DNA from: Candidatus Cloacimonadales bacterium
GTDB lineage: Bacteria > Cloacimonadota > Cloacimonadia > Cloacimonadales > JAFGVF01
Reading direction: 5' to 3'
NCBI GenBank assembly: GCA_963667035.1
Contig: OY762964.1
Span: forward strand, 1,472,001-1,536,000
DNA length: 64,000 nucleotides
The translations under genes and the position numbers were made by a program. The notes beneath the pieces were generated by a model. That model was not told the DNA's origin and did no database searches. It saw nothing but the letters and a program-made list of their open reading frames with translations. Positions 2,900-37,564 of the stretch are shown piece after piece; positions within the stretch are counted from its first letter, which is position 1; each line of letters opens with the position of its first letter.

Positions 2900-3916
2900 C
2901 TAACTATCCAACAGCTTAGCTCTAACTTTTGCACTGATCATATCCATAATCCATACAACTATTGCAATTAACCACATAATCAAACCAACATTTCGCCAAG
3001 CTAGCATCTGCTGTTCTTGCATAAGAGCAAGACCAATCCCCCCACCACCAACAAAACCTACTATTGTAGCCATTCTTACGTTAATGTCCCATCTGTAGAT
3101 AGTGAAAGCAAGATAAGGAGAAATTATCTGAGGAATTACAGCATATATCCAAACCTGTAACGTTGAGGCACCAGTAGCTTTTATTGCTTCAACCTGTCCC
3201 CAATCAATGTTCTCTATCTGCTCGGAATAGAGTTTTACTAAAGCGGCAATAGAATGAGTCGTCAAAGCCAGCATACCTGCAAAAGGACCTATACCAACCC
3301 AAACAGAAAATATGATAGCCCAGACAATTGCTTCAATTGATCTAAAGACAGTCGCAATTGTCCTTATTATAAAGTAAACTGTTACACTCAGAGCATTACC
3401 GGACATAAGGTTTCTTGCTGCAAAAAAACTGAGTATGAAAGCTATAGGAATAGCAAATATGGTAGCCATGAAAGCTAAAAATATAGTCTCGGATAATGAT
3501 CCTAATAAGGGAGTTAACTTAGTAAAGTTAGGGTTAAAAAGACCACTTAATATATTACCGGAATTCCTAAATTGAGTGAAGAACTCAACCGGATTGATTT
3601 CTACAACAAGCCAACCTGTAAACATTGTTATTGCAATCAACGGAAGTATATAAATCCAGAAGCCACCATGTTTATCTTCATCTCTCAGGAATATTCTATA
3701 GCCCAGGGACATCTTCATTAGCAATAAAGATATGGACTTAAGAATAGCAAGCACTAATATAACTATTACAAGACTTATGCTTTTAGACTCTAAAAAATCG
3801 GACAATGCTGATTCGCTAAAGAAATTAACAATATAAGCTATACATCCTATGAAATAACTAAAGAACAGTATATCTGTTCCCAAAGCTTTGATATAATTAA
3901 ACACTTTATCTTTCAT
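2900..3916 (-). CDS. phnE: Phosphonate/phosphite ABC transporter permease
   Basis: EQIENID..QVEAIKATGA, YRWDINVRMATIVGFVGGGGIG; hydrophobic. Confidence 0.9.
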   Translation of the reverse strand: MKDKVFNYIKALGTDILFFSYFIGCIAYIVNFFSESALSDFLESKSISLVIVILVLAILKSISLLLMKMSLGYRIFLRDEDKHGGFWIYILPLIAITMFTGWLVVEINPVEFFTQFRNSGNILSGLFNPNFTKLTPLLGSLSETIFLAFMATIFAIPIAFILSFFAARNLMSGNALSVTVYFIIRTIATVFRSIEAIVWAIIFSVWVGIGPFAGMLALTTHSIAALVKLYSEQIENIDWGQVEAIKATGASTLQVWIYAVIPQIISPYLAFTIYRWDINVRMATIVGFVGGGGIGLALMQEQQMLAWRNVGLIMWLIAIVVWIMDMISAKVRAKLLDS

Positions 3917-3921
3917 AATAT

Positions 3922-4677
3922 CTACCTTATAGTAATCTCTTCAGCTTCTTCGCCATATATAGAACGGAATCTGGATTCGTCTATCTCGTTAGGATTACCT
4001 TCAAAGACTTTCTTCCCGTCCTTAAGTGCAACTACCCTACTTCCGTACTTACGAGCAAGGCTTAAAAAATGAAGTGAACATATCACGGTAATACCGTCAT
4101 TCTTATTTAATTCTCCTAGATAATGCATTACGGAATCGGCAGTAGCGGGATCAAGAGAAGCAACTGGTTCATCAGCTAGTATAATATCAGGACTTTGCAT
4201 CAAAGCTCTTGCGATAGCCACTCTTTGCTGCTGGCCTCCACTCAAATTCTTAACTTTACGCTTGGCAAAATCAGCTAATCCTACCCTTTTCAGATTCTGA
4301 ATTGCTAACTCCTTCTCCTCTTTTGTCCAAGGTTTTAGAAGAGAATGTTGACCTAATCGCCCTGTAAGTACATTAGTAAGAACAGAGAGATTCTTAATAA
4401 GGTTAAACTGTTGAAAAATCATACCAATTCTACTTCTAACAGCAGGAAGTTCTCTATTGGTAAGAGTCGTTATCTCTTTACCTTTGAAAGAGATTGAACC
4501 GGAAGTCGGCTCTATCAGTCTGTTAATACAACGCAGAAGCGTGGATTTACCGGAACCGGATAATCCTAAAAGAATAGCAAACTCACCCTCTTTAATATCA
4601 AGATTGATATTCTTCAGAGCATGTGTCTCTCTATCATAGTATTTGTTTAAGTCTTTAATCTTAATAATATCTGACAT
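3922..4677 (-). CDS. phnC: Phosphonate ABC transporter ATP-binding protein
   Basis: GLSGSGKST, LSGGQQQRV, LADEPVASLDP. Confidence 0.93.
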   Translation of the reverse strand: MSDIIKIKDLNKYYDRETHALKNINLDIKEGEFAILLGLSGSGKSTLLRCINRLIEPTSGSISFKGKEITTLTNRELPAVRSRIGMIFQQFNLIKNLSVLTNVLTGRLGQHSLLKPWTKEEKELAIQNLKRVGLADFAKRKVKNLSGGQQQRVAIARALMQSPDIILADEPVASLDPATADSVMHYLGELNKNDGITVICSLHFLSLARKYGSRVVALKDGKKVFEGNPNEIDESRFRSIYGEEAEEITIR

Positions 4678-9988: not shown

Positions 9989-10825
<837 letters not shown>

Positions 10826-10905
10826 TCACCTCTTTAAATTTCATTTGTTGTTATTACGAAGTTATGCTCTTATTTGTCAATTAGAATGTGGTTACAAATA
10901 AATTA

Positions 10906-13101
10906 CTAATCATGCTTAAGTTTGCTACAATCTTTGTAAAGCCTTATCAGATTATCTTCAGAAAGATCCAGAATTGGTTCATACATGAAAGTATTAAGAT
11001 GTATATTTTCAGGAGTCATTAGACTCACTCTATCAATTATTTCTAGATTGTTGACATTCATTGCAAACTCTTTTTTGTATTGTCTAATCAACATATTAGT
11101 CTGATTAGTCCCTTCTTCTAGCTTAACTAAAAACTCAGTATCACTGATTACAGTTTTCAAAAATTCCTCTGTTTTTAATCTAATGGCTATTGCTAGAACA
11201 ATCTTTCTTTCCAGATTACATGTTACTGAAGGTTTGAGAATGCTTTCTACTACAGACGTAATGACATCAATGACCTTTCTTTCTTTATCGATAAAGCATA
11301 TCTCTGGTTTGTTTGTTTTCAATACTCCTTTATATATTGTTTCTAACTCACCAATTGTTATTGTTTTAGTTAATTCCTTTTGATGCAACAGAGATGTTAG
11401 GGACTTAAAGCTATTTGTTTCAACCGAATTACTAAACTCAATAAGATTTCGCACAAACGGTATCATAGCAATTATCATTGTATCTTCGTTAATCTTACTT
11501 TTGAAATACTTAAACGGATTTTCAATATACACTGATGGATAAAAACTAATATTGTTTTCATTTTTCTTCACCATAAATGACTGCTCCCGTCCAACAAATC
11601 TACTAACTACAGTCCTAAAGAAATCAAAATTATGTGTAAGAATTATTTGATAGAACTTGTCATCCTTGTTTAAGTCGCTTAAGTATTCGATTATGGTATA
11701 TTTATTTTTATAATCGAATGAATCTGCTATATCATCAATAATAAGGAGAGTTTCATTTTCTTGCTTTCTTCTCTCCTCAAGTTCAAAGATTATGTTTAGT
11801 AAATATAATGATCTTCTTTCACCTTGGCTTAAGACTTTGAGTAACTTGTTCTGATCAATTTCTTTTGGATCTTTGCCATCATCATAAATAAACCTAATTT
11901 CAAGAGGACTACCTTTTAGCATTACGTTATCTTGGTTTTTTACTTCTAACTTAAATGGAGGGTGGAATCTGTCTTCAAACTTTTTTAGTGCATTTAACCA
12001 CTGAGTTTCTTCGTCTTTAGCATCTTTGACAATTTGCGAAAGTCTTGCTTTTCCATATCCATATTTTGCTACATAATCATGATACTCGACAATACAAATC
12101 CTAATGTAGTTTAGCCATAATTCCTTCCTAAATTCCTCAATATCTATAAGTTTTGTTATTAAATTAGGATTTTGTTTTAAGAAATCTCTAAAACTTCTTT
12201 GTTTAACATTAGAGAGTTGCTTGTCAATATTGTTAAATGCTTCTGATACTTTTGGGTCTGCTAAAACAAAGTTCAAATCTTCTTGAATCAAATTCTCTAG
12301 TTCCTTATCACTTTTTATCTCTCTGTACTCATCTCCATCAAACAATTGGACATTATGTTTAGCATTGAAAAAACCATTTTTCCCTAAGTTTTTCTGCACT
12401 TCTTTTGCGTTATAATGATTGAAATCACTTCTCAAGTATTTCGTTTTAGATACAACATCAGTATAAGATTCAATGTAGTTTAAGATATTCTGTATAAAAT
12501 CTTTGTTTCGAATAAGTTTCATCACATCTGCATTAAATATTTCATTATATTTAATAGCGACGAACTCTATAGAATCATCAGCTTCAACTTCGTCCTTTAT
12601 TCTATACAGAGCTTCAAACAATTCACCTTCAAAGGCTAGGTTAAACTCATCCTTTACTTTTTTATCAGAACCAGCTCCTTTAATTCCAGATATTTTCTTT
12701 AACTCCTTGAGTAGCTTTACTTGGGCATCATCAATACTTTTTATTATTTCTTCATAATCCTGTTTCAGCCTTTCATTTGCTAGTAAAGTTGACTCTTTTT
12801 CAAAACTATAACTCTCAATATATGGCTTTATAACAAAAACACATTCGGGTACTAAGTATTCATCATCTCCCGACTTAATTTCTCTTAAAGTAGGTCGTTC
12901 CTCGCCATATACTAAATCTGTTGAAGTTTCATTATTGGATAAATCATCAAAGGTCTTTGCAAAAGAGGATTTCATTGACCCATTGGGTGCATAAATCGCT
13001 ATTGATTTTTTCTCATGACCCTCTTTATCATAAAATTTCATTGATTCACATAGTTTTCTAATGCCATAGCAGTTTTCAAGATTTAACATGATTTCCTTCA
13101 T
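10906..13101 (-). CDS. Large ABC/SMC-type ATPase, RloC/AAA_13-like, candidate defence protein
   Basis: Variant Walker A YAPNGSMKSS, coiled-coil middle, LSQGERR signature, Walker B/D-loop LIIDDIADSFD, H-loop ILTHN. Confidence 0.7.
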   Translation of the reverse strand: MKEIMLNLENCYGIRKLCESMKFYDKEGHEKKSIAIYAPNGSMKSSFAKTFDDLSNNETSTDLVYGEERPTLREIKSGDDEYLVPECVFVIKPYIESYSFEKESTLLANERLKQDYEEIIKSIDDAQVKLLKELKKISGIKGAGSDKKVKDEFNLAFEGELFEALYRIKDEVEADDSIEFVAIKYNEIFNADVMKLIRNKDFIQNILNYIESYTDVVSKTKYLRSDFNHYNAKEVQKNLGKNGFFNAKHNVQLFDGDEYREIKSDKELENLIQEDLNFVLADPKVSEAFNNIDKQLSNVKQRSFRDFLKQNPNLITKLIDIEEFRKELWLNYIRICIVEYHDYVAKYGYGKARLSQIVKDAKDEETQWLNALKKFEDRFHPPFKLEVKNQDNVMLKGSPLEIRFIYDDGKDPKEIDQNKLLKVLSQGERRSLYLLNIIFELEERRKQENETLLIIDDIADSFDYKNKYTIIEYLSDLNKDDKFYQIILTHNFDFFRTVVSRFVGREQSFMVKKNENNISFYPSVYIENPFKYFKSKINEDTMIIAMIPFVRNLIEFSNSVETNSFKSLTSLLHQKELTKTITIGELETIYKGVLKTNKPEICFIDKERKVIDVITSVVESILKPSVTCNLERKIVLAIAIRLKTEEFLKTVISDTEFLVKLEEGTNQTNMLIRQYKKEFAMNVNNLEIIDRVSLMTPENIHLNTFMYEPILDLSEDNLIRLYKDCSKLKHD

Positions 13102-28078: not shown

Positions 28079-28566
28079 TGTTTATCTTAATTCTAGTTGC
28101 ATCTTTAATTCTGTTTTTTTTCGTCACCAATACTATCAGTTATAGAATACTTAAGAACAAAATCTTAAAAAGCAGAAAATGGGATTTGAACATCTGTTGC
28201 GGTAAAACTGATGGAGGTGGAGTTAATGCTGATATTGTTAAACATATAGAATTACCGAATTATATACAGATAAATGATATAACTAATCTTCCGTTTAAGA
28301 ATAAGCAGTTTAAACATGTCTTATGCTCTCATACAATTGAGCATGTTGATAATCCGATTGCTTTCTACAACGAGCTTCAAAGAGTAGGAGAAAATGTGGT
28401 GATAGTTGTTCCGCCTTTATGGGACATAACAGCAGCTTTTAACATCATAGAGCATAAGTGGTTATTCCTAACTATGAGACCAAATCACCTCAAGCTTCCT
28501 TTTCATGTGAGATTACCAATTGCACATAAACTACAATCAATCTGGGGTCAGAAGATTAAAGCTTAG
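28078..28566 (+). CDS. Class I SAM methyltransferase-like protein with N-terminal TM
   Basis: LNICCG, DITNLPFKNKQF, SHTIEHVDNP. Confidence 0.7.
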   Translation: MFILILVASLILFFFVTNTISYRILKNKILKSRKWDLNICCGKTDGGGVNADIVKHIELPNYIQINDITNLPFKNKQFKHVLCSHTIEHVDNPIAFYNELQRVGENVVIVVPPLWDITAAFNIIEHKWLFLTMRPNHLKLPFHVRLPIAHKLQSIWGQKIKA

Positions 28567-29428
28567 TTTTTGTTATCCGTATTGAATCATACGGATTATC
28601 CAGATCAAAAGAGATAACACACGCTTCATCTCTTTCCGAAGCACCCTGAAAAGCCAGATTATCTCCAATCGTATCAGTGTATTCGCCGGTTATTCGAGTT
28701 GATTCGTGAACGTGTCCATGCATTGTAAGATAGAACTTTCGGTTTTCTAACAACCTTTTCAAAGCTATTGAGCCTATGTTAACATCTAGTGGAGCATAAT
28801 CAATCATCTTTCCATCTAAATCAGCTCTATCAAGCTTAGTTTGATAAGGTGGTGTATGTGAAAGCAATATAGTTCTTTCTGTGGCACATGAATCGAATAA
28901 TTCTTCAAAGTCTTCCTTAATTGTTGTATACTTCAGCTCATATTCAGTAATACTACTATCGTGATATCCTTGTTCAGGAGCAACACAACCCACATCAACA
29001 AATCTGGAGACATCGTATTTTTCCCAATCTTTATTCATAAATGGAGTTGGAGGTACAAAATTGTAACCTACAATTATCCAGTTTTTAAACTGTATCTTCT
29101 TTTTATGACAATAGGTAAGCAACCCCGTGAATTTGTCCCCAAGTAGTATCTCTTCTGAGATTCTGTTATCATCATTACCCATGATAACAAATATTTCAGG
29201 ATAGCACTCCCCCATCTCTTCCTTTAACTTCTGCAATTCAACCTTAAGGAATCCACAGAGAAATGAATCTGATTTCTCTGATACAGCATCACGTATACTG
29301 TTAAAAGGTAACAGTATATCTCCTCCAATAAAAACAACTTCTGGTTCTATTTCTCTAATCTTTTCAAACAGATAGTTATATTTAAACTTGTTGCCGTGTA
29401 AGTCCGAAGTAAGTAAAGCTCTTATCAT
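28556..29428 (-). CDS. Calcineurin-like metallophosphoesterase
   Basis: SDLHG, GGD, MGNDD, HTPP, HGHVHE. Confidence 0.9.
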   Translation of the reverse strand: MIRALLTSDLHGNKFKYNYLFEKIREIEPEVVFIGGDILLPFNSIRDAVSEKSDSFLCGFLKVELQKLKEEMGECYPEIFVIMGNDDNRISEEILLGDKFTGLLTYCHKKKIQFKNWIIVGYNFVPPTPFMNKDWEKYDVSRFVDVGCVAPEQGYHDSSITEYELKYTTIKEDFEELFDSCATERTILLSHTPPYQTKLDRADLDGKMIDYAPLDVNIGSIALKRLLENRKFYLTMHGHVHESTRITGEYTDTIGDNLAFQGASERDEACVISFDLDNPYDSIRITKTKL

Positions 29429-32400
29429 CTTTTAACCTTTAACAGCTTAGCTGCATCAGTTACTGCTCCAATCTTTATTGCAAAACTATCCTTCTCCAGA
29501 ATATCATGGTCGGAAATAATATGTATATCCAAAAGACCATCGGTTTTGTAACCTGTTCTCAGATAATTCATTCTAGCAAGACATTTACTCCAACCTTCAA
29601 ACCAAGCAAGTAATTGCTGCTTCTTAATCTCATTACCTCTGAAATGAACAAGTAAATCAATATCACTTCCGGGACCGGCTGTTGCATTTTTAACACTACC
29701 AAAAATATATAAATTAACAACCCCATACTTCTTAGAATCGAGTTGTAATGCTAGATATTCACTCATTTGAAGTCTCCATAACCAGTAATTGTCTGTATTC
29801 TCTTCTTCATAATATGCTTTAAGTGAACTTGTTTTTCTACCGTCAGCAACTCCAAAGTAAGCTATTGCTTGTTCCAAATCTGCATTCATGAATATCTTTA
29901 ACACATGTCCGGATGTTTCCTTTTGTACATCGAACACTTGAACGCAATTTGATAAGTATGAGTATTTTGGGAGTAAGGTTGATAAAATGTTCTCCCCTCT
30001 CACAAAGAAGTTAGTATTAAAGATATAACCTTTTTCATCCGGATAAAGTGGGATGTAGCGTATAGTAGACTCAACAAGATCTTGAAAGAAATGTGTTCCA
30101 AACGAAAGGTCGGGAGCAAAATTTGCTTGTTCCTTAGCTACTTCAATCAATGCTGATGTGTTGCTTATTTCTGAATACGACACATCGACTCCGAGTTTAA
30201 TATCTCCTTTACTACCCCATCTACCCGGACCAATAAGAATAAACTTCTTCTTAGGAAGTATTGAATTCAATTTTCCGACACAACGACCTACAGCTTTCAA
30301 GTCTTCCAAAGTCTTGAGTTTTTTATACTTTATCGGGTCTACATAAACAATATGAGTTACTTCAGGAATTATTCCATTAGAGATATGCTTCCCGGCTGTG
30401 AAAAGTATATCTTTTTCAGGTATATCCTGAGGAATAGGTGCTGGCTCTACTTCTTTAGAGAAACATTGCGGTCGACACTGAAGAAGATATATAACATCAT
30501 TAATAACAGCAAACTCGATATCTACGGGTGTTGACATTTTATCCTCCAGAACATCAAGGAGTCTCTTTATTCTGTTCATAAACTGAGTATCTGTCATTAA
30601 TGATCTGAAAGTAACAATTAGGTCATCTTTAGCAAAATCAATGTTGAATACAGCCTTCTGATGAATAAATCCATTCTCGTTAACACTGAAGATTCTATTT
30701 AGCATTGGGAAACTATCTTGAAACTTATGAAGGGCATCTTCAATCTTCATAGTCTCAAAGGTATTAGTTTCAAGATTAATCAAATCAATATGTTTGGGTG
30801 AATACTTTAGTATCTCATCAGGAGAAGCATTAACCCTAATTCCTGGTTGACCGGGAGAAGCAAGCACAGGATAATCATCACTAACTCTATCTACTGCTCT
30901 GGTACCAAGTCCGGGAACTAATCTCACTAATCCATCTTCTCTCTTTATTCTAGGAGACCATCTGAATTCATTACTTGAGAAAGCTACTCCCGCAAACGCA
31001 GGAAGATAGTAGTTTCCTACTTTTGTGCCAACAACTTCCTGAATCATTATAGCCATCTCTTCATGAAAATCTACAAGACCATGATCTTTTCTGTATTCAA
31101 TCGGGTCAGGAGCTACAATTGAAGCATAAACTTCTGCTATTGCATCCATTAAAGCACTTAATCTTTCTTTTTTATTGCCTTGATTAGCTAAAAAGAGGCT
31201 TTTATACTTACCTGAAAATGAGGTTCCAAAGCTATCTTCTAATAACGATGAACTCCTTACTATGATTGGTGAATTACCAAAAGAATCTAGAGCTTGTGCT
31301 AGTTCTTTTGCTATATCATGAGGGAAGTAAGAGTTTTTAAACATTTGCACAATATTATGATATTCTGCTCTTATCTGTTCAATGTCTTTATACTTCTGCT
31401 CAATCACTTCTTCCAGATTATTGTAATGAATGAAAGATTGCATGGCATCAGATGTTATATACCAACTTTTGGGAGTTCTAATTCCTTTCTGAAACTCTAA
31501 ATCAGTTTCGCTTTTAACTATATTATAAGCAAAAAACAGACCTGTACTCTTTCCTCCAAGTCTTCCATGAGAATTCTTTGGAGAGATTGTATGTTGGAGC
31601 ACATCATAGAAGTCCTCTATTTGAATATAATTCTTAGCTATGCGAATAAACTCTAGTTGGGAAGTGAACAAGCGTTGTATCAGAAGAACTTTTAAGTTAA
31701 GCTGAGAATATGGAGACAGGTTCTCTTTACTAATCTTTAAGTGTTGATATCTGACTATAGCATCTTGAAGCTCTGCTAATGACGTTTCTTTATCTTCAAG
31801 TGCAGTTATCAGAAAGCTAAGTTTATCTTCTTGTATCCATTTATGTATGTACTCAAGAACTTCTTCATTAGGTAAACAACATTCTGCAATTTCAAAGACC
31901 TTATGACTCACCGCTTCCATATCCAGGTATTCTTGTTTTTTTAAAGGTTTATTAGCATCTAGTATATCCTCCGTATCTGATTCTGATCTGGTTATACCTG
32001 CTGAGTAATAAATCTCTTTTACTTCTTGAATACCCCTCTGATATAAAAGATTAATGAGTTTTCGAGCTATTTTCAAAGATAAACGGTAATCAGTATCCTG
32101 TAACATCTTAAGTACTATTTTCCAGTCTTTATGTTCCATTTCGGATCTGGAATCTGATGACTCTAAATTCTTCGTGAACGACCTTACTAATAAGTACGTG
32201 GAAAGCATTTCCGCTAAAGTTCCAAGTAATGAAACCTCTTCATCTAGAAATGGACTGGATTCAAAATCATTAGGAACTTGAGAGTAGTATACTTTTATCT
32301 CACCAAAGTATTGGTCATTCATACTTAACGCTCTTTGTTGAGAATACTTTGGAATTGCATCTTTTTTCAGAGAGTATATCGTACCCATGTATTCAATTTC

Positions 32401-32583
32401 TGCGAAACATGATTCAGTAAACTGCCATCCGGCAGGTATAATCTCAAGTATCTTTTCAAAGATAATCACTAAATCTTGAGTATAATCGGAAGTTATCTCA
32501 ATCATTTTATGAATACAAGCTAACTCTTTACGTCTCTCAGTAAGTTGTAATTGTAACTGATTATTGTTCCCGCCATAACTCAT
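29425..32583 (-). CDS. Multidomain protein: sensor-like N-terminus + PEP/pyruvate-binding (PPDK_N) domain + C-terminal nucleotidyltransferase
   Basis: ERRKELAC..IPAGWQF; GGKS, VRSSSLLEDS..SFSGKY, PVDIEFA..LLQCRP, SFGTHFF; FGSVKNATAGPGSDIDL (GS..DxD). Confidence 0.85.
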   Translation of the reverse strand: MSYGGNNNQLQLQLTERRKELACIHKMIEITSDYTQDLVIIFEKILEIIPAGWQFTESCFAEIEYMGTIYSLKKDAIPKYSQQRALSMNDQYFGEIKVYYSQVPNDFESSPFLDEEVSLLGTLAEMLSTYLLVRSFTKNLESSDSRSEMEHKDWKIVLKMLQDTDYRLSLKIARKLINLLYQRGIQEVKEIYYSAGITRSESDTEDILDANKPLKKQEYLDMEAVSHKVFEIAECCLPNEEVLEYIHKWIQEDKLSFLITALEDKETSLAELQDAIVRYQHLKISKENLSPYSQLNLKVLLIQRLFTSQLEFIRIAKNYIQIEDFYDVLQHTISPKNSHGRLGGKSTGLFFAYNIVKSETDLEFQKGIRTPKSWYITSDAMQSFIHYNNLEEVIEQKYKDIEQIRAEYHNIVQMFKNSYFPHDIAKELAQALDSFGNSPIIVRSSSLLEDSFGTSFSGKYKSLFLANQGNKKERLSALMDAIAEVYASIVAPDPIEYRKDHGLVDFHEEMAIMIQEVVGTKVGNYYLPAFAGVAFSSNEFRWSPRIKREDGLVRLVPGLGTRAVDRVSDDYPVLASPGQPGIRVNASPDEILKYSPKHIDLINLETNTFETMKIEDALHKFQDSFPMLNRIFSVNENGFIHQKAVFNIDFAKDDLIVTFRSLMTDTQFMNRIKRLLDVLEDKMSTPVDIEFAVINDVIYLLQCRPQCFSKEVEPAPIPQDIPEKDILFTAGKHISNGIIPEVTHIVYVDPIKYKKLKTLEDLKAVGRCVGKLNSILPKKKFILIGPGRWGSKGDIKLGVDVSYSEISNTSALIEVAKEQANFAPDLSFGTHFFQDLVESTIRYIPLYPDEKGYIFNTNFFVRGENILSTLLPKYSYLSNCVQVFDVQKETSGHVLKIFMNADLEQAIAYFGVADGRKTSSLKAYYEEENTDNYWLWRLQMSEYLALQLDSKKYGVVNLYIFGSVKNATAGPGSDIDLLVHFRGNEIKKQQLLAWFEGWSKCLARMNYLRTGYKTDGLLDIHIISDHDILEKDSFAIKIGAVTDAAKLLKVKR

Positions 32584-34319
32584 TTAAGAATTACTCCTTT
32601 ACCACTTCTTCCGTCTGCAAATACTTCAATTGGTTTATCAAGTCTAACATGGAGTAGATGCTCGGTTTCATTTATTACTTCGTGCTTGCGTAACCATTCC
32701 CAGTCTATTTTTTTACTCATCTCAATATCTGCTGAAAAATATATCACATTATGAGCTGTCATATTATGGAAGAAGTGAGAACCTTGACTAAAGTCAAATC
32801 GCATTTCAGGTAACACTGCTTCAATTATCACTTTTGCTCCCGAAATCTGTGACCATTTAATCGGTATACCCATCCATGGGTCTGATGTACCCCACCTTCC
32901 GAATCCCATAAGAGCATAGCATTTCTTATCTTTCAGTAACTCAGCATTTATCTCGGCAATATCCATTGCTACTTCCATAGATGCTTTAGGATTGAAATCC
33001 TCCGGTTTAACAAATACTATATCACAAATATCATCAATATGTGCATTACCCATAACTTGTTCAGACTTGATTAGCACATCATTACTATTCATTAAGTCAT
33101 CGGTTATATCAACAATCTTGTCACTGATACTAATTGGTCTTAACTGTAAGAATCCAAATCTTGGTTTATCTATGTTCTCGGGATCAATAGTCATAGCAAA
33201 TTCAATCTCTACTTTATTACCGGTCTCTTCTTCACATACTTTCATTAGTTCTTTAATCAGAGGATTTAACGGTATGGTATCCAATCTAAGAATTGGTGCA
33301 AAATCCACAATCCTAGAACCGCTATATGATGTTCCGATAGTTATTCTATCATTCAAGCTATCAAAAGTTGAGCATATCTGCTTTAGTGTGCCATGTTCTT
33401 CCGCATCATATATTGATTTATAACATAAATACTCTGTTTCCTGAATTGGATCATAGCAACATACCTGTGCCAGATTAATAGCCCAAAACTCAGTTTGTGT
33501 GTATTTCAGTATATCATGGTTATTGTTAAACGGTGGTGGAGCTGTAGGATGCATTGGAGAGTAACTCCATGATTTTTCTCCTTCTACGACAGCTTTTCCT
33601 AATCCAAGAGCAAGAGTTGCTATACCCTCTTCATGTGTTGCATTGTTTGTAGGATAGAAGTTATAAGATTTCACAACACCAGAGATTGTTGGATAGAATA
33701 AATCTCCATGTTTACTTCCTAGTACTTCTTGAATAATGATTGCCATTCTTTCTTCTCTGATATCTCTATTAAGTGACTTAAAATACTCTTTAGAATTCTC
33801 AAAGAATAATGAAGCATATACAAATTTTATTGCTTCCATGAGAACTCGAAATCTTTGATCCTTATCTATTTGATTATTAGGAATCATCTTGGTTTCATAA
33901 ACTCCGGCAAAAGGATCATCTATTGAGTCCTCAAAAATACTTGAAGATCTAATTGCTAGAGGTTGGTTTATACTCTCGATAATACTCCTTAAGTCTCCGG
34001 AGTATATCGCACCTAAAGATGCTCTCTGGAAAGCTAATGATATATCTACGTCACTGGCATCGGATAACGCAATTTCATAAAGGTCATTAGATTCCATGAA
34101 ATCTTCAAAAACACCACTTAAAAGTACTGTCATACTGGGTATATTTATTTTTATACCCTCATAATCATCATTAGGGAATCTTTTTTTTAGCACATCTTGC
34201 ATAAAGGCTAACCCTGAAGCTTTGCCTCCGGGTTCTCCTCTTCCTATATAATTAAATCTATCTGAAAAGAAACCGCTTATTCTATCAAATCTTTGTCCCG
34301 ATTTCATGTTTTTATTCAT
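32580..34319 (-). CDS. PEP/pyruvate-binding (PPDK_N) domain protein
   Basis: GGKASGL, IRSSSIFEDS..FAGVY, GLGKAVVEG, VEIEFA..LQLRP, SQGSHFF. ATG 34319 overlaps the gdh stop (TAATG). Confidence 0.85.
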   Translation of the reverse strand: MNKNMKSGQRFDRISGFFSDRFNYIGRGEPGGKASGLAFMQDVLKKRFPNDDYEGIKINIPSMTVLLSGVFEDFMESNDLYEIALSDASDVDISLAFQRASLGAIYSGDLRSIIESINQPLAIRSSSIFEDSIDDPFAGVYETKMIPNNQIDKDQRFRVLMEAIKFVYASLFFENSKEYFKSLNRDIREERMAIIIQEVLGSKHGDLFYPTISGVVKSYNFYPTNNATHEEGIATLALGLGKAVVEGEKSWSYSPMHPTAPPPFNNNHDILKYTQTEFWAINLAQVCCYDPIQETEYLCYKSIYDAEEHGTLKQICSTFDSLNDRITIGTSYSGSRIVDFAPILRLDTIPLNPLIKELMKVCEEETGNKVEIEFAMTIDPENIDKPRFGFLQLRPISISDKIVDITDDLMNSNDVLIKSEQVMGNAHIDDICDIVFVKPEDFNPKASMEVAMDIAEINAELLKDKKCYALMGFGRWGTSDPWMGIPIKWSQISGAKVIIEAVLPEMRFDFSQGSHFFHNMTAHNVIYFSADIEMSKKIDWEWLRKHEVINETEHLLHVRLDKPIEVFADGRSGKGVILK

Positions 34320-35602
34320 TAGATCCAACCCCTTTCTTGCGATGCTCTAACAACTCTGTCTACGGCTATCATATAAGCGGCATCTCTCATATACAAATTC
34401 TTGCGTCTAGCTAATTCGGAAATTCTATGATATGCTCTGGTTAGCTTTATATCAAGTTTACTAATAACTTCATCTTTCGACCAATAATAGTTCATATTTG
34501 ATTGAACTTGTTCAAAGTAACTGCAAGTAACACCTCCGGCATTACAAATCACATCAGGAATAACAAATATATCCTTTTTTCTTAGAATCTCATCAGCTCG
34601 TGGACTAGTCGGACCATTTGCTCCTTCAGCAATTATCTTCACTTTTGGATGTATTAAGTCAACGTTATCTCTAGTTATCTGATGTTCCAACGCTGCCGGA
34701 ACAAGAATATCACACTCCTGTTCAATCCATTTATCTCCATCATTTAACTCATATCCTAATTCTTCAGCTTGTTTTGAATCTATACTTCCGAATCTATCAG
34801 TTATTTTCTGTAATTCGGATAGATTTATGCCATCAGGTCTAGTATAAAGAATTGAACTGTTTGTTTGGGGATTCCACGAAGAGACACCCATTACTGTACC
34901 ACCTAGTTGGTTGTATAAACTGATTGCGTGTTGAGCAACATTTCCAAAACCTTGAAATACAGCAGTTGTTCTATCGGGGCGTAACTTTAACTCTCTCAAA
35001 GCTTCACGGACAGTAAACATTAATCCATATCCGGTAGCTTCAGTTCTACCTAAAGAACCTCCAAGTTCTACCGGCTTACCTGTTATCATTCCCGGCATTC
35101 TGCATCCGTGCATAGTTTCATATTCATCCAAAATCCAAAGCATATGCTGACTATATGTCATAATATCCGGTGCCGGAATATCTCTCAAGGGTCCGATGTT
35201 ATCACCTAACTGTCTTACCCAACCTCTGCATATTAACTCTTGTTCTCGATATGACAATTGGTGAGTATCACAAATAACTCCTCCGTATCCTCCTCCTAAG
35301 GGAAGATCTACAACTGATGTCTTCCAGGTCATCCACATAGCCAATGCTCGAACTAAATCAACTGTCTCTAAGGGATGAAATCTCACTCCACCCTTGGCGG
35401 GACCTAGAGCATCATTATGTTGAATTCGAAAACCTTTAAAAACTTTTGTAGTTCCATCATCCATTTTGACAGGTATTAAGAAATGATACTCCCTGAGCGG
35501 ATTTCTTAAGAAATCTTTAGCTGCTTGATTTAGATCTAGTTTATTTGCTATTAAGTCAAATTGCTTCTGCACCATCTCAAAAGCATTAAATGTTTCGCTC
35601 AT
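34319..35602 (-). CDS. Glu/Leu/Phe/Val dehydrogenase homolog with catalytic Lys replaced by Tyr
   Basis: GPAKGGVRFHP, MTWK, GGGYGG, PAPD, GRTEATG, QGFGNV, EGANGP, NAGGV.SYFE; GAGGTG RBS before ATG 35602. Confidence 0.9.
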   Translation of the reverse strand: MSETFNAFEMVQKQFDLIANKLDLNQAAKDFLRNPLREYHFLIPVKMDDGTTKVFKGFRIQHNDALGPAKGGVRFHPLETVDLVRALAMWMTWKTSVVDLPLGGGYGGVICDTHQLSYREQELICRGWVRQLGDNIGPLRDIPAPDIMTYSQHMLWILDEYETMHGCRMPGMITGKPVELGGSLGRTEATGYGLMFTVREALRELKLRPDRTTAVFQGFGNVAQHAISLYNQLGGTVMGVSSWNPQTNSSILYTRPDGINLSELQKITDRFGSIDSKQAEELGYELNDGDKWIEQECDILVPAALEHQITRDNVDLIHPKVKIIAEGANGPTSPRADEILRKKDIFVIPDVICNAGGVTCSYFEQVQSNMNYYWSKDEVISKLDIKLTRAYHRISELARRKNLYMRDAAYMIAVDRVVRASQERGWI

Positions 35603-35888: not shown

Positions 35889-36374
35889 ATGAATAGAGTT
35901 ATTATTTTAATATTGTTAACTTTCTTACTACTTGGCTGTGTTGATTCAACAAGAAATTGGGAACCTAATGGACCTGTATCAAGAGATTTAATTGATTTCG
36001 TTGCGAGAGCAAAAACTGAGATTGAGAGGGATGGGATAAATGCCTTTCATGCTTTTCGCTCAGACAATAAGTGGATTGAAGACGACAAGTACATATTCGT
36101 TTGGAATATGGAAGGTATTCGATTCGTTTACCCTCCTGATCCTGCAGGTGAGGGTAAGTTGATGCTGAATCTAAAGGATAGTGAAGATAAACCTATTGGC
36201 ATGGAATTCATACAGATCGCTCAACAAGGTGGTGGTTGGGTTCATTATAAGTGGCCTAAGTTAGGTGACACAGAGCCTGAATGGAAATCAACCTATATTC
36301 TTCCCGTAACAACACCAAGTGGGTCTAAATTCTTAGTAGGAAGCGGAGTTTACGGACTTAGAGTTGATAAATAG
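35889..36374 (+). CDS. Stand-alone Cache-domain lipoprotein
   Basis: Lipobox LLGC, YIFVW, LKDSEDK, GGGWVHYKWPK, VGSGVY. Confidence 0.82.
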   Translation: MNRVIILILLTFLLLGCVDSTRNWEPNGPVSRDLIDFVARAKTEIERDGINAFHAFRSDNKWIEDDKYIFVWNMEGIRFVYPPDPAGEGKLMLNLKDSEDKPIGMEFIQIAQQGGGWVHYKWPKLGDTEPEWKSTYILPVTTPSGSKFLVGSGVYGLRVDK

Positions 36375-37009: not shown

Positions 37010-37564
37010 CTAATCACTTTCTCCCTTTCCCTCGGTTCTTCCATTATTTCTGATGTATTCAATAGTAGCTTGGAAATGCTTATCATTTCTGATATATCTA
37101 TCGTAGTAATCATTCATCCAAAACTTACCCTTTCTACCTAATATCTTATTTGCTTTATTAGCTGTATAGGATTTCCACGAATGTATTATCTTTGATAAAC
37201 TATGATTTGGGTTTACTTTGATTAAAACATGTACATGATTTGGCATTACAATCCACTCAATTAAATCATATCTTTCCTTATGATGAAACATTAGTGCATC
37301 TTCTACTATCTTCTTAACAGTCTTATTATTAAGAAAGCAACTTCCATGTCCTTTATCTAAATACTTAGCTATTTTTGTGTGAAGTTTTATATATTCATCA
37401 GTATCTTTTTTATTATCATCTGTAATGCCTAACTCATCTTGCCAGTTTATTATTAACTCTTTCGGTACAGAATCATACAAACGGAAAGTAATGAATTGAT
37501 ATACTTCATCACCGTCATAGTGACTTAAATATCCTCGAGAATGCCAACCTTTTAATTCATCCAT
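37010..37564 (-). mobile_element. REP-associated tyrosine transposase (RAYT)
   Basis: GWHSRGYL, FITFRLYDSVP, VMPNHVH (HUH), WKSYTA, FW..YYDRYIR, catalytic YIRNN. Confidence 0.92.

Follow-up and report, generated by a model that had tools for sequence, protein, structure and literature searches.

Why should a gene of the glutamate dehydrogenase (GDH) family be encoded end to end with two dikinase-like proteins and a metallophosphoesterase? The question is raised by four minus-strand genes in a 64,000-nt stretch of Candidatus Cloacimonadales DNA (GenBank assembly GCA_963667035.1, contig OY762964.1, positions 1,472,001 to 1,536,000), referred to here as the window and numbered from its first letter. 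The genes encode, in this order, the GDH-family protein, a small dikinase-like protein (SML), a large multidomain protein (BIG) and a calcineurin-like metallophosphoesterase (MPE). An earlier note made from the sequence alone had read them as a glutamate/2-oxoglutarate-sensing signaling operon, in which the GDH homolog is sensor or target, the ATP-grasp proteins relay phosphate, a nucleotidyltransferase writes a modification and the phosphoesterase removes it. We conclude that the four genes probably constitute one conserved functional module centered on the GDH-family protein, which probably controls, or adds to, a central step in nitrogen metabolism.

GDH links carbon with nitrogen metabolism and has a central place in anaerobes that ferment amino acids, Cloacimonadota among them. 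Our literature search, whose coverage was incomplete and which is no proof of absence, found no description of this module family, and the available passages of ProFaNA on PPDK_N deal with SelO neighborhoods only. Modules of related kinds are already known, namely dikinase-derived regulators and the control of nitrogen enzymes by nucleotidylation, while the C-terminal domain shared by BIG and SML is new by sequence.

Conserved linkage of the four genes

Linkage was surveyed in 16 genome loci from several phyla, 80 metagenome loci and 61 genomes of the order to which the window belongs. The survey showed GDH, SML, BIG and MPE together across phyla, and thus did not bear out the absence of conserved linkage that the earlier note had named as a refutation. 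In 42 metagenome loci the BIG N-terminus was complete and the upstream DNA at least 3400 nt long, and a GDH at least 55% identical lay just upstream in 41 of them; SML or an SML-BIG fusion stood between GDH and BIG in 28 of the 41, and GDH was directly adjacent in 13. Nine of the 16 genome loci carried a GDH 61-86% identical to that of the window directly upstream of SML-BIG or BIG, the remainder comprising one locus with other GDH types (L012), three that were too short upstream and three with no GDH (L008, L009, and L013). Within the order, a GDH ortholog (E ≤ 1e-100) was found in 20 genomes and a BIG ortholog (at least 48% identity) in 21, with an overlap of 20, and none of the 40 genomes without BIG had the linked GDH (0/40). 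SML adjoined GDH in 19 of the 20 loci of the order. Genome G045, an assembly of about 190 contigs that is 96% complete, encodes a BIG ortholog 53% identical to that of the window (C25:25146-28286), and GDH was not found in it at E ≤ 1e-100.

The pairwise distances of GDH and BIG were correlated over 51 loci (Mantel r 0.566, reached by 0 of 999 permutations), which shows co-inheritance only, because the loci are related. SML and BIG also occur as one polypeptide; SML is matched at 48% identity by residues 23-574 of the 1634-residue protein P0029, the remainder of which is BIG, and locus L025 holds a 1661-residue open reading frame (ORF) of the same SML-BIG type. Taken over all samples, the module and one particular GDH clade are inherited together, usually along with a metallophosphoesterase, and the module spans Cloacimonadota, Calditrichota, Zixibacteria, Ignavibacteria/Bacteroidota and other groups.

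The operon with a phosphoesterase that had been described for the window proved only partly general. Of the 71 loci having at least 1000 nt of downstream DNA, 46 had a metallophosphoesterase no more than 1.2 kb downstream, so that it is often kept near; however, the common strand is not usual, as the gene was on the opposite strand in 38 of these 46 loci and shared the strand, as it does in the window, in eight. In the window itself, MPE is translationally coupled and on the same strand as the rest of the operon. No other conserved neighbor was found over 96 loci, the commonest extras being a sigma-54 activator (8/96) and a PAS histidine kinase (6/96). Two loci from uncultured Melioribacter sp. 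deserve mention on their own account: L008 (4391-7441) and L013 (6452-9505) encode proteins similar to BIG up to about residue 910, apparently without the nucleotidyltransferase, and neither GDH nor SML occurs within 4.4-6.5 kb upstream.

Composition of the four proteins

BIG and SML are paralogs of each other and belong to the dikinase-type ATP-grasp proteins. PPDK_N (PF01326, cut-off 27) was matched by residues 341-722 of BIG with 217.6 bits and by residues 34-404 of SML with 99.7 bits, whereas PEP-utilizers_C and, at E ≤ 0.01, PEP-utilizers (PF00391) had no Pfam match in either protein. The claim that the PPDK_N pair lacks both a canonical GGxTSH phospho-His domain and the phosphoenolpyruvate (PEP) TIM barrel thus stands, since Pfam shows neither, and even at E ≤ 10 Pfam listed nothing in residues 1-340 and 723-935 of BIG or 405-582 of SML. 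The AlphaFold model of BIG (pLDDT 79.5) has five parts: residues 1-140 or so form an alpha/beta domain and residues 150-335 or so a helical region; the ATP-grasp follows, then a second, compact alpha/beta domain (about 723-911) and, past a disordered linker, the nucleotidyltransferase. In Foldseek searches the ATP-grasp part matched rifampin phosphotransferase (RPH; 5hv1/5hv2, E 4e-12 to 5e-11, with 4e-12 for 5hv2) and HpeI (9goj, 2.6e-9), as well as PEP synthase (2ols) and pyruvate phosphate dikinase (PPDK). Both proteins of the window hold every family-invariant residue, those of the ATP-grasp included, and from their sequences the enzyme cores look active. The families are large: at least 7899 BIG homologs were found at E ≤ 0.001 among 7999 candidates scored, with source names including Cloacimonetes, Ignavibacteria, Bacteroidota, Calditrichia, and Spirochaetales, and each of the 120 BIG homologs listed covers at least 79% of the BIG length; SML had 7191 homologs among 8000 candidates, none of them functionally named.

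Since some sources name homologs "pyruvate, water dikinase" or "pyruvate phosphate dikinase", the two genes might be taken for ordinary PEP synthase or PPDK genes that were mis-split or degraded beside an ordinary gdh. This reading is refuted by the domain content (no PEP-utilizers, no TIM barrel) and is scarcely conceivable: thousands of full-length homologs have the same architecture, the genome encodes a separate full-length PPDK-type ORF of 915 residues with a canonical GGMTSH, and the matches of the PPDK_N proteins to the NCBIfam models for PEP synthase, Rph, PigC, and RedH are partial and far under the cut-offs. Weak PF00391 matches seen in ORFs of about 600 residues in relatives were rejected, these ORFs being unrelated to SML (no BLAST match).

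Behind the ATP-grasp, BIG and SML have in common a C-terminal domain of about 180 residues with one invariant His (His831 in BIG, His518 in SML); SML ends after this domain, whereas BIG runs on into the nucleotidyltransferase. The shared S(F/Q)G(T/S)HFF motif pointed out earlier reads SFGTHFF and SQGSHFF in the window, and it goes beyond chance in an alignment of 30 BIG and 25 SML domains, where G-R-(W)-G and S-x-G-x-H-F-F are invariant and the His is present in 55/55. Searched against 1.84 billion proteins, a profile of the domain found 2363 representatives (50% identity clusters) at E ≤ 0.001, and PPDK_N stood immediately before the His domain in 13 of 13 proteins of differing length sampled from these representatives. 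At the sequence level the domain is new, with no relatives detectable beyond its own family. Its model is confident (pLDDT 88.9), and in it a flexible loop of low confidence is followed by a helix at whose start the invariant His stands. An exhaustive VIA fold search with this model returned matches of Z about 5-6, a range in which (below 8) a match may mean only a common arrangement, and the top rows were mostly swivelling beta/beta/alpha domains. They included, at Z 5.4 over 115 aligned positions, residues 386-511 of PPDK 2fm4 (its phosphoryl carrier domain); at Z 5.2 both the Bacillus stearothermophilus pyruvate kinase C-terminal domain and the RPH swivel domain (residues 756-867 of 5hv1); at Z 4.9 residues 384-517 of maize PPDK; and at Z 4.8 Enzyme I. 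A role as a very diverged phospho-His carrier would be in keeping with the fold class of the modeled domain, its constant pairing with PPDK_N and its invariant His, although this is not established.

The GS..DxD motif of a Pol-beta-type nucleotidyltransferase, already noticed in BIG, is present as GSVKNATAGPGSDIDLL (GS-x9-DxD), with G962, S963, D974, and D976 invariant in 56 homologs. Residues 951-997 matched NTP_transf_2 (PF01909, 33.7 bits, cut-off 21) and also Polbeta, and the last domain of BIG matched the minimal nucleotidyltransferase (MNT) antitoxins 8xeh_E and 8xeo_B in Foldseek; GlnE and GlnD were absent from the families that Pfam and NCBIfam listed for the four proteins. MPE matched PF00149 with 36.8 bits (cut-off 21.5) and carries the metal-binding motifs DLHG (9), GGD (35), GNDD (84), SHTPP (190), and HGHVH (237), the usual His of GNH(D/E) being Asp, and a sequence search for solved relatives gave none that was meaningful (best E 0.065).

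An MNT-type nucleotidyltransferase next to a phosphoesterase might also indicate a mobile defense or toxin-antitoxin-like element that by chance lies beside gdh. Weak PADLOC matches point that way (PDC-S09 to the nucleotidyltransferase, E 2.3e-8; PDC-S10 to MPE, E 9.8e-6), although they concern generic domains only; a match to NCBIfam MntA (NF047752; 22.4 bits, E 8.4e-5), under its cut-off of 60, points the same way. We consider such an element very improbable, as no HEPN protein was found among the four genes or the flanks, SML and GDH had no PADLOC match, base composition is even over the whole window, the flanks are housekeeping, and GDH and BIG co-diverge and have a strict shared phyletic pattern.

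The sensor-like N-terminal segment that had been ascribed to BIG is a genuine sensor-type module, which recurs at the N-termini of HisKA kinases beside the cluster. Residues 6-131 are 33% identical to the kinase N-termini in L150 and L151, from two genomes of the order, where the kinases are divergent from the GDH cluster, and 25% identical to a GAF-HisKA-HATPase kinase downstream in L101; in Atlas, GAF clusters at 0.88-0.89 gave a weak lead for this segment. The kinases starting with a domain like BIG residues 6-134 lie at 3007-4281 (+) in L150, 2-1174 (-) in L151, and 10619-12508 (+) in L101, and adjoin the GDH cluster.

Beside or instead of this module, some loci carry a second, paralogous one, consisting of a more distant GDH (30-43% identical), a protein of about 1000 residues and a metallophosphoesterase (L004 14123-19133; L012 1752-6207; L023, L026, L040, L051, L052, and L059). 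The paralogs of about 1000 residues contain a receiver-like domain (26-29 bits, cut-off 30.2), DUF5752, PPDK_N and the same C-terminal His domain, and their N-terminal part has no similarity to the N-terminal 340 residues of BIG.

The GDH-family protein matched both ELFV domains (PF02812, 163.4 bits; PF00208, 227.3 bits) and is homologous to Pyrococcus furiosus GDH (1GTM) over its full length (E 5.7e-119), scoring 446.8 bits with NCBIfam GdhA_Arch, under the cut-off of 750. In place of GGGKGG it reads GGGYGG, the alignment to 1GTM setting the Tyr (codon TAC at 35285-35287) opposite the Lys, which we take to be the catalytic residue of GDH. The label "pseudo-GDH" given by the earlier note is thus apt for the window and not as a general trait: 17 of the linked GDHs in the 20 loci of the order keep the Lys, two have Tyr and one is unreadable, the Tyr form among the sampled genomes of the order being confined to the window and to G001 of the same genus. 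At the metagenome loci the position is Lys in 38, another residue in seven (Asn in four, Thr, Phe, and Met) and unreadable in three. Altogether at least five distinct replacements of the Lys (Y, N, T, M, and F) occur in clusters that are otherwise intact, and from these sequences other lineages have lost the Lys independently of the genus of the window.

K94, S361, and N329 are invariant in 68/68 aligned linked GDHs, the non-Lys variants included. The latter likewise retain C111 and C360, which are specific to the clade, and those with Met or Phe are altered at K70 as well. Non-synonymous divergence (dN) between the window and the other Tyr-bearing genome was 0.098 for GDH, 0.104 for SML, 0.090 for BIG, and 0.243 for MPE, synonymous divergence being saturated for GDH, SML, and BIG in this comparison; these values indicate that the Tyr form is maintained under purifying selection and is not decaying. 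Two canonical GdhA-type genes with GGGKGG are present elsewhere in the same genome and can supply catalysis. With the catalytic Lys lost but the substrate- and cofactor-binding residues kept under purifying selection, the GDH of the window is most likely a regulatory subunit predicted to bind glutamate, 2-oxoglutarate or NAD(P)H instead of an enzyme, and the repeated loss of the Lys in an intact module speaks for a conserved role of the clade there that does not strictly depend on dehydrogenase chemistry. A poorly active GDH paralog, GdhA of Thermus thermophilus (3AOE), reportedly serves as a regulatory subunit. In comparison with GDHs of the 1GTM type, the protein of the window differs by its Tyr, by the Cys pair of its clade, by an insertion that the linked clade carries in the NAD domain and by always being co-encoded with dikinase-like genes.

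Several observations on the GDHs stand apart from this argument. Cys111 (in GGV(I/V)CDPH, just past the catalytic position) and Cys360 (in GGVTCSYFE, beside the substrate-binding Ser) are invariant in the 68 linked GDHs, the matching positions of the P. furiosus enzyme being Val, and the pair could, judged by conservation, form a redox or modification site. At L019 (1-1014 and 1231-2727), one of the two canonical GdhA-type genes is preceded by an ORF that on reading the sequence resembles a sigma-54 activator. In L033, L039, L046, and L101, whose linked GDH has Asn or Met, the gene immediately upstream encodes another, more distant GDH (30-33% identical), which suggests a division of labor between a catalytic and a non-catalytic GDH.

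These data bear on the possibility that GDH is an input only, reporting glutamate, 2-oxoglutarate or NAD(P)H to BIG, which would have its targets elsewhere or produce a nucleotide signal for MPE to degrade. The dead GDH partners, which persist under purifying selection with intact binding residues, would suit this role, as would the second GDH next door in the four Asn or Met loci, and metallophosphoesterases include nucleotide phosphodiesterases. However, the majority of linked GDHs are catalytically intact by motif, BIG already has a sensor domain of its own and no candidate for a third-party target is conserved nearby; we regard this explanation as distinctly unlikely.

Candidate functions of the module

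One of the closest parallels among known systems is VadK of Mycobacterium tuberculosis (Rv1127c), a PPDK without the TIM barrel that autophosphorylates His422 and binds enzymes of the methylcitrate cycle (PMC13400623). Both VadK and BIG/SML combine a PPDK_N ATP-grasp with a His domain and lack the PEP/pyruvate TIM barrel, and VadK acts on or with central-metabolism enzymes and not in PEP production. In contrast to BIG and SML, whose C-terminal domain has no sequence similarity to it, VadK keeps a recognizable PPDK phospho-His domain (His422 by overlay on PPDK structures, PMC13400623), and it has no sensor, nucleotidyltransferase, paralog partner, phosphoesterase or GDH link, all of which are seen here.

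We tentatively favor a sensor-gated, VadK-like module that phosphorylates His and nucleotidylates, acting on or with GDH, a reading that comes close to being probable without quite reaching it. With ATP as the donor, the ATP-grasp would charge the conserved His in the C-terminal domain in the manner of PPDK, PEP synthase and VadK, and the sensor domain (in the paralogs, the receiver domains) would gate this charging. The charged enzyme would then bind or covalently modify the GDH hexamer, with a phosphoryl group from the His or a nucleoside monophosphate (NMP) from the nucleotidyltransferase, and the metallophosphoesterase would reverse the mark on GDH. The sensing module put forward by the earlier note is partly supported, namely by the domain reading, the linkage, the SML-BIG fusions and the sensor module; the dead Lys is not a general feature, and the phosphate relay, the written modification and its removal would be putative steps.

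A more specific form of this proposal is a reversible covalent-modification cascade for GDH in anaerobic bacteria, the counterpart of the control of glutamine synthetase by GlnE/GlnD or of isocitrate dehydrogenase by AceK, in which the GDH partner of lineages like that of the window would have turned into a pure ligand-sensing pseudoenzyme subunit. A sensor-gated dikinase would charge the new phospho-His carrier, carrier and nucleotidyltransferase would mark GDH, and MPE would erase the mark; we think this possible though rather unlikely. With GlnE, GlnD, and the AMPylation of HepT by MntA it has in common a domain of nucleotidyltransferase fold that could write an NMP mark on a nitrogen enzyme. 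However, the nucleotidyltransferase of BIG is outside the GlnE and GlnD families, the analogy being one of function only, and it is fused to a dikinase core. Removal is by a second nucleotidyltransferase or an HD domain in the GlnE/GlnD control of glutamine synthetase and PII, whereas the proposed remover here is a metallophosphoesterase.

Dikinases acting on small molecules offer a further comparison. RPH (5hv1/5fbs), HpeHI/AcvAB, and phenylphosphate synthase have a comparable layout, with the ATP-grasp first and a swivelling His domain at the C-terminal end, and two-protein dikinases exist. PEP synthase and PPDK resemble BIG and SML in the PPDK_N domain and differ in having PEP-utilizers and PEP-utilizers_C. 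BIG and SML could accordingly belong to a small-molecule pathway, phosphorylating and perhaps nucleotidylating a metabolite bound or made by GDH, with MPE acting later. This would agree with RPH and HpeI as the best structure matches of the ATP-grasp and with PigC, RedH, and Rph among the best partial NCBIfam matches. It would also agree with GDH being first in gene order and the most conserved member (mean pairwise distance 0.29 vs 0.47 for BIG), and with a catalytic Lys kept in 38/45 readable metagenome GDHs and 17/19 readable GDHs of the order. Against it, Pfam recognized no substrate-binding domain of the rifampin-binding or TIM-barrel kind in BIG or SML, the Foldseek alignments to 5hv1 being only about 400-430 columns long. 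Moreover, a histidine-kinase-type sensor domain in BIG and receiver domains in the paralogs are typical of signaling, no further pathway genes are conserved nearby, and the replacements of the Lys occur in otherwise intact clusters. BIG and SML also differ from RPH and the split dikinases in their His motif, which is SxGxHFF and not GGxTSH, in the added sensor and nucleotidyltransferase of BIG, and in being tied to a gene coding for a GDH protein, whereas those dikinases are tied to catabolic genes. On balance we hold the small-molecule pathway to be unlikely.

Several results weigh against the VadK-like module that we favor. To our knowledge, the characterized PPDK_N enzymes without a TIM barrel, VadK excepted, all act on small molecules or glucans. 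The linkage is not complete, as GDH was absent from one of the 42 metagenome loci (L071) and from 4.4-8 kb of upstream DNA in L008, L009, and L013, and 25 of the 71 loci lacked a nearby phosphoesterase; no fusion of GDH with PPDK_N was found among 22 longer GDH homologs, which is weak evidence. As for the phospho-His carrier, its top fold matches reached only Z 5.2-5.8, Foldseek of the domain model against the PDB gave none at E ≤ 0.001, a profile search of PDB sequences with the C-terminal domain gave chance-level matches only, and hhalign against 28 genuine PEP-utilizers domains of relatives returned a probability of 0.1. Finally, if GDH activity were what is regulated, loss of the Lys would be expected to leave the module without use; because the module remains intact despite this loss, a sensor or scaffold role of GDH fits better than GDH activity as the target.

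The wide co-inheritance and the thousands of homologs of each dikinase-like protein point to an unrecognized layer of control, or an unrecognized chemistry, at the GDH node. The repeated loss of the Lys in an intact module is a natural experiment, by which a role of GDH as an enzyme can be told apart from a role as a binding partner.

Layout of the locus and its flanks

The four minus-strand genes overlap stop to start in the way first described, with TAATG at 34319 and ATGA at 32580-32583 and 29425-29428. The junctions read tcTAATGaa (GDH stop and SML start), aaATGAgt (SML stop and BIG start), and gATGAta (BIG stop and MPE start). The SML start at 34319 agrees with the 579-residue record protein P0124, which is 100% identical. 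Coordinates of the genes and of the domains of BIG and SML are collected in Table 1.

Table 1. Genes and protein domains of the GDH-linked locus, in positions of the window.
Feature	Position	Strand	Basis and remarks
MPE, calcineurin-like metallophosphoesterase, 290 aa	28556..29428	-	Pfam Metallophos
BIG, large multidomain protein, 1052 aa	29425..32583	-	sensor-like, helical, PPDK_N, His domain and MNT-type nucleotidyltransferase
BIG residues 930-1052, minimal (MNT/Pol-beta) nucleotidyltransferase	29428..29796	-	NTP_transf_2, Polbeta, Foldseek
BIG residues 715-915, C-terminal His domain (GRWG, SxGxHFF)	29839..30441	-	alignment, model pLDDT 88.9; His831 codon 30091-30093
BIG residues 341-722, PPDK_N ATP-grasp	30418..31563	-	Pfam 217.6 bits, Foldseek
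BIG residues 150-340, helical region	31564..32136	-	AlphaFold model; no Pfam match at E ≤ 10
BIG residues 1-145, alpha/beta sensor-like domain (GAF-like as a lead only)	32149..32583	-	model; matches to HisKA kinase N-termini
SML, small dikinase-like protein, 579 aa	32580..34319	-	PPDK_N and C-terminal His domain; ORF open to 34328 (582 aa), real ATG at 34319
SML C-terminal His domain, residues 405-582 of the 582-aa ORF	32583..33116	-	alignment; His codon 32775-32777
GDH-family gene, 427 aa from the likely ATG at 35602	34319..35602	-	ELFV_dehydrog_N and ELFV_dehydrog; ORF open from 35650 (443 aa)

The flanking genes are unrelated to the operon. On one side they encode a methyltransferase, a GtrA-like protein and a SpoU methylase, and on the other a small Cache-domain ORF, an IS200-type transposase, SHMT, and RpiB. 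The IS200-type (Y1_Tnp) transposase gene lies at 37010-37564 (-), 1.4 kb upstream of the operon, and the Cache-domain ORF of 161 residues (35889-36374, +) is divergent from the operon.

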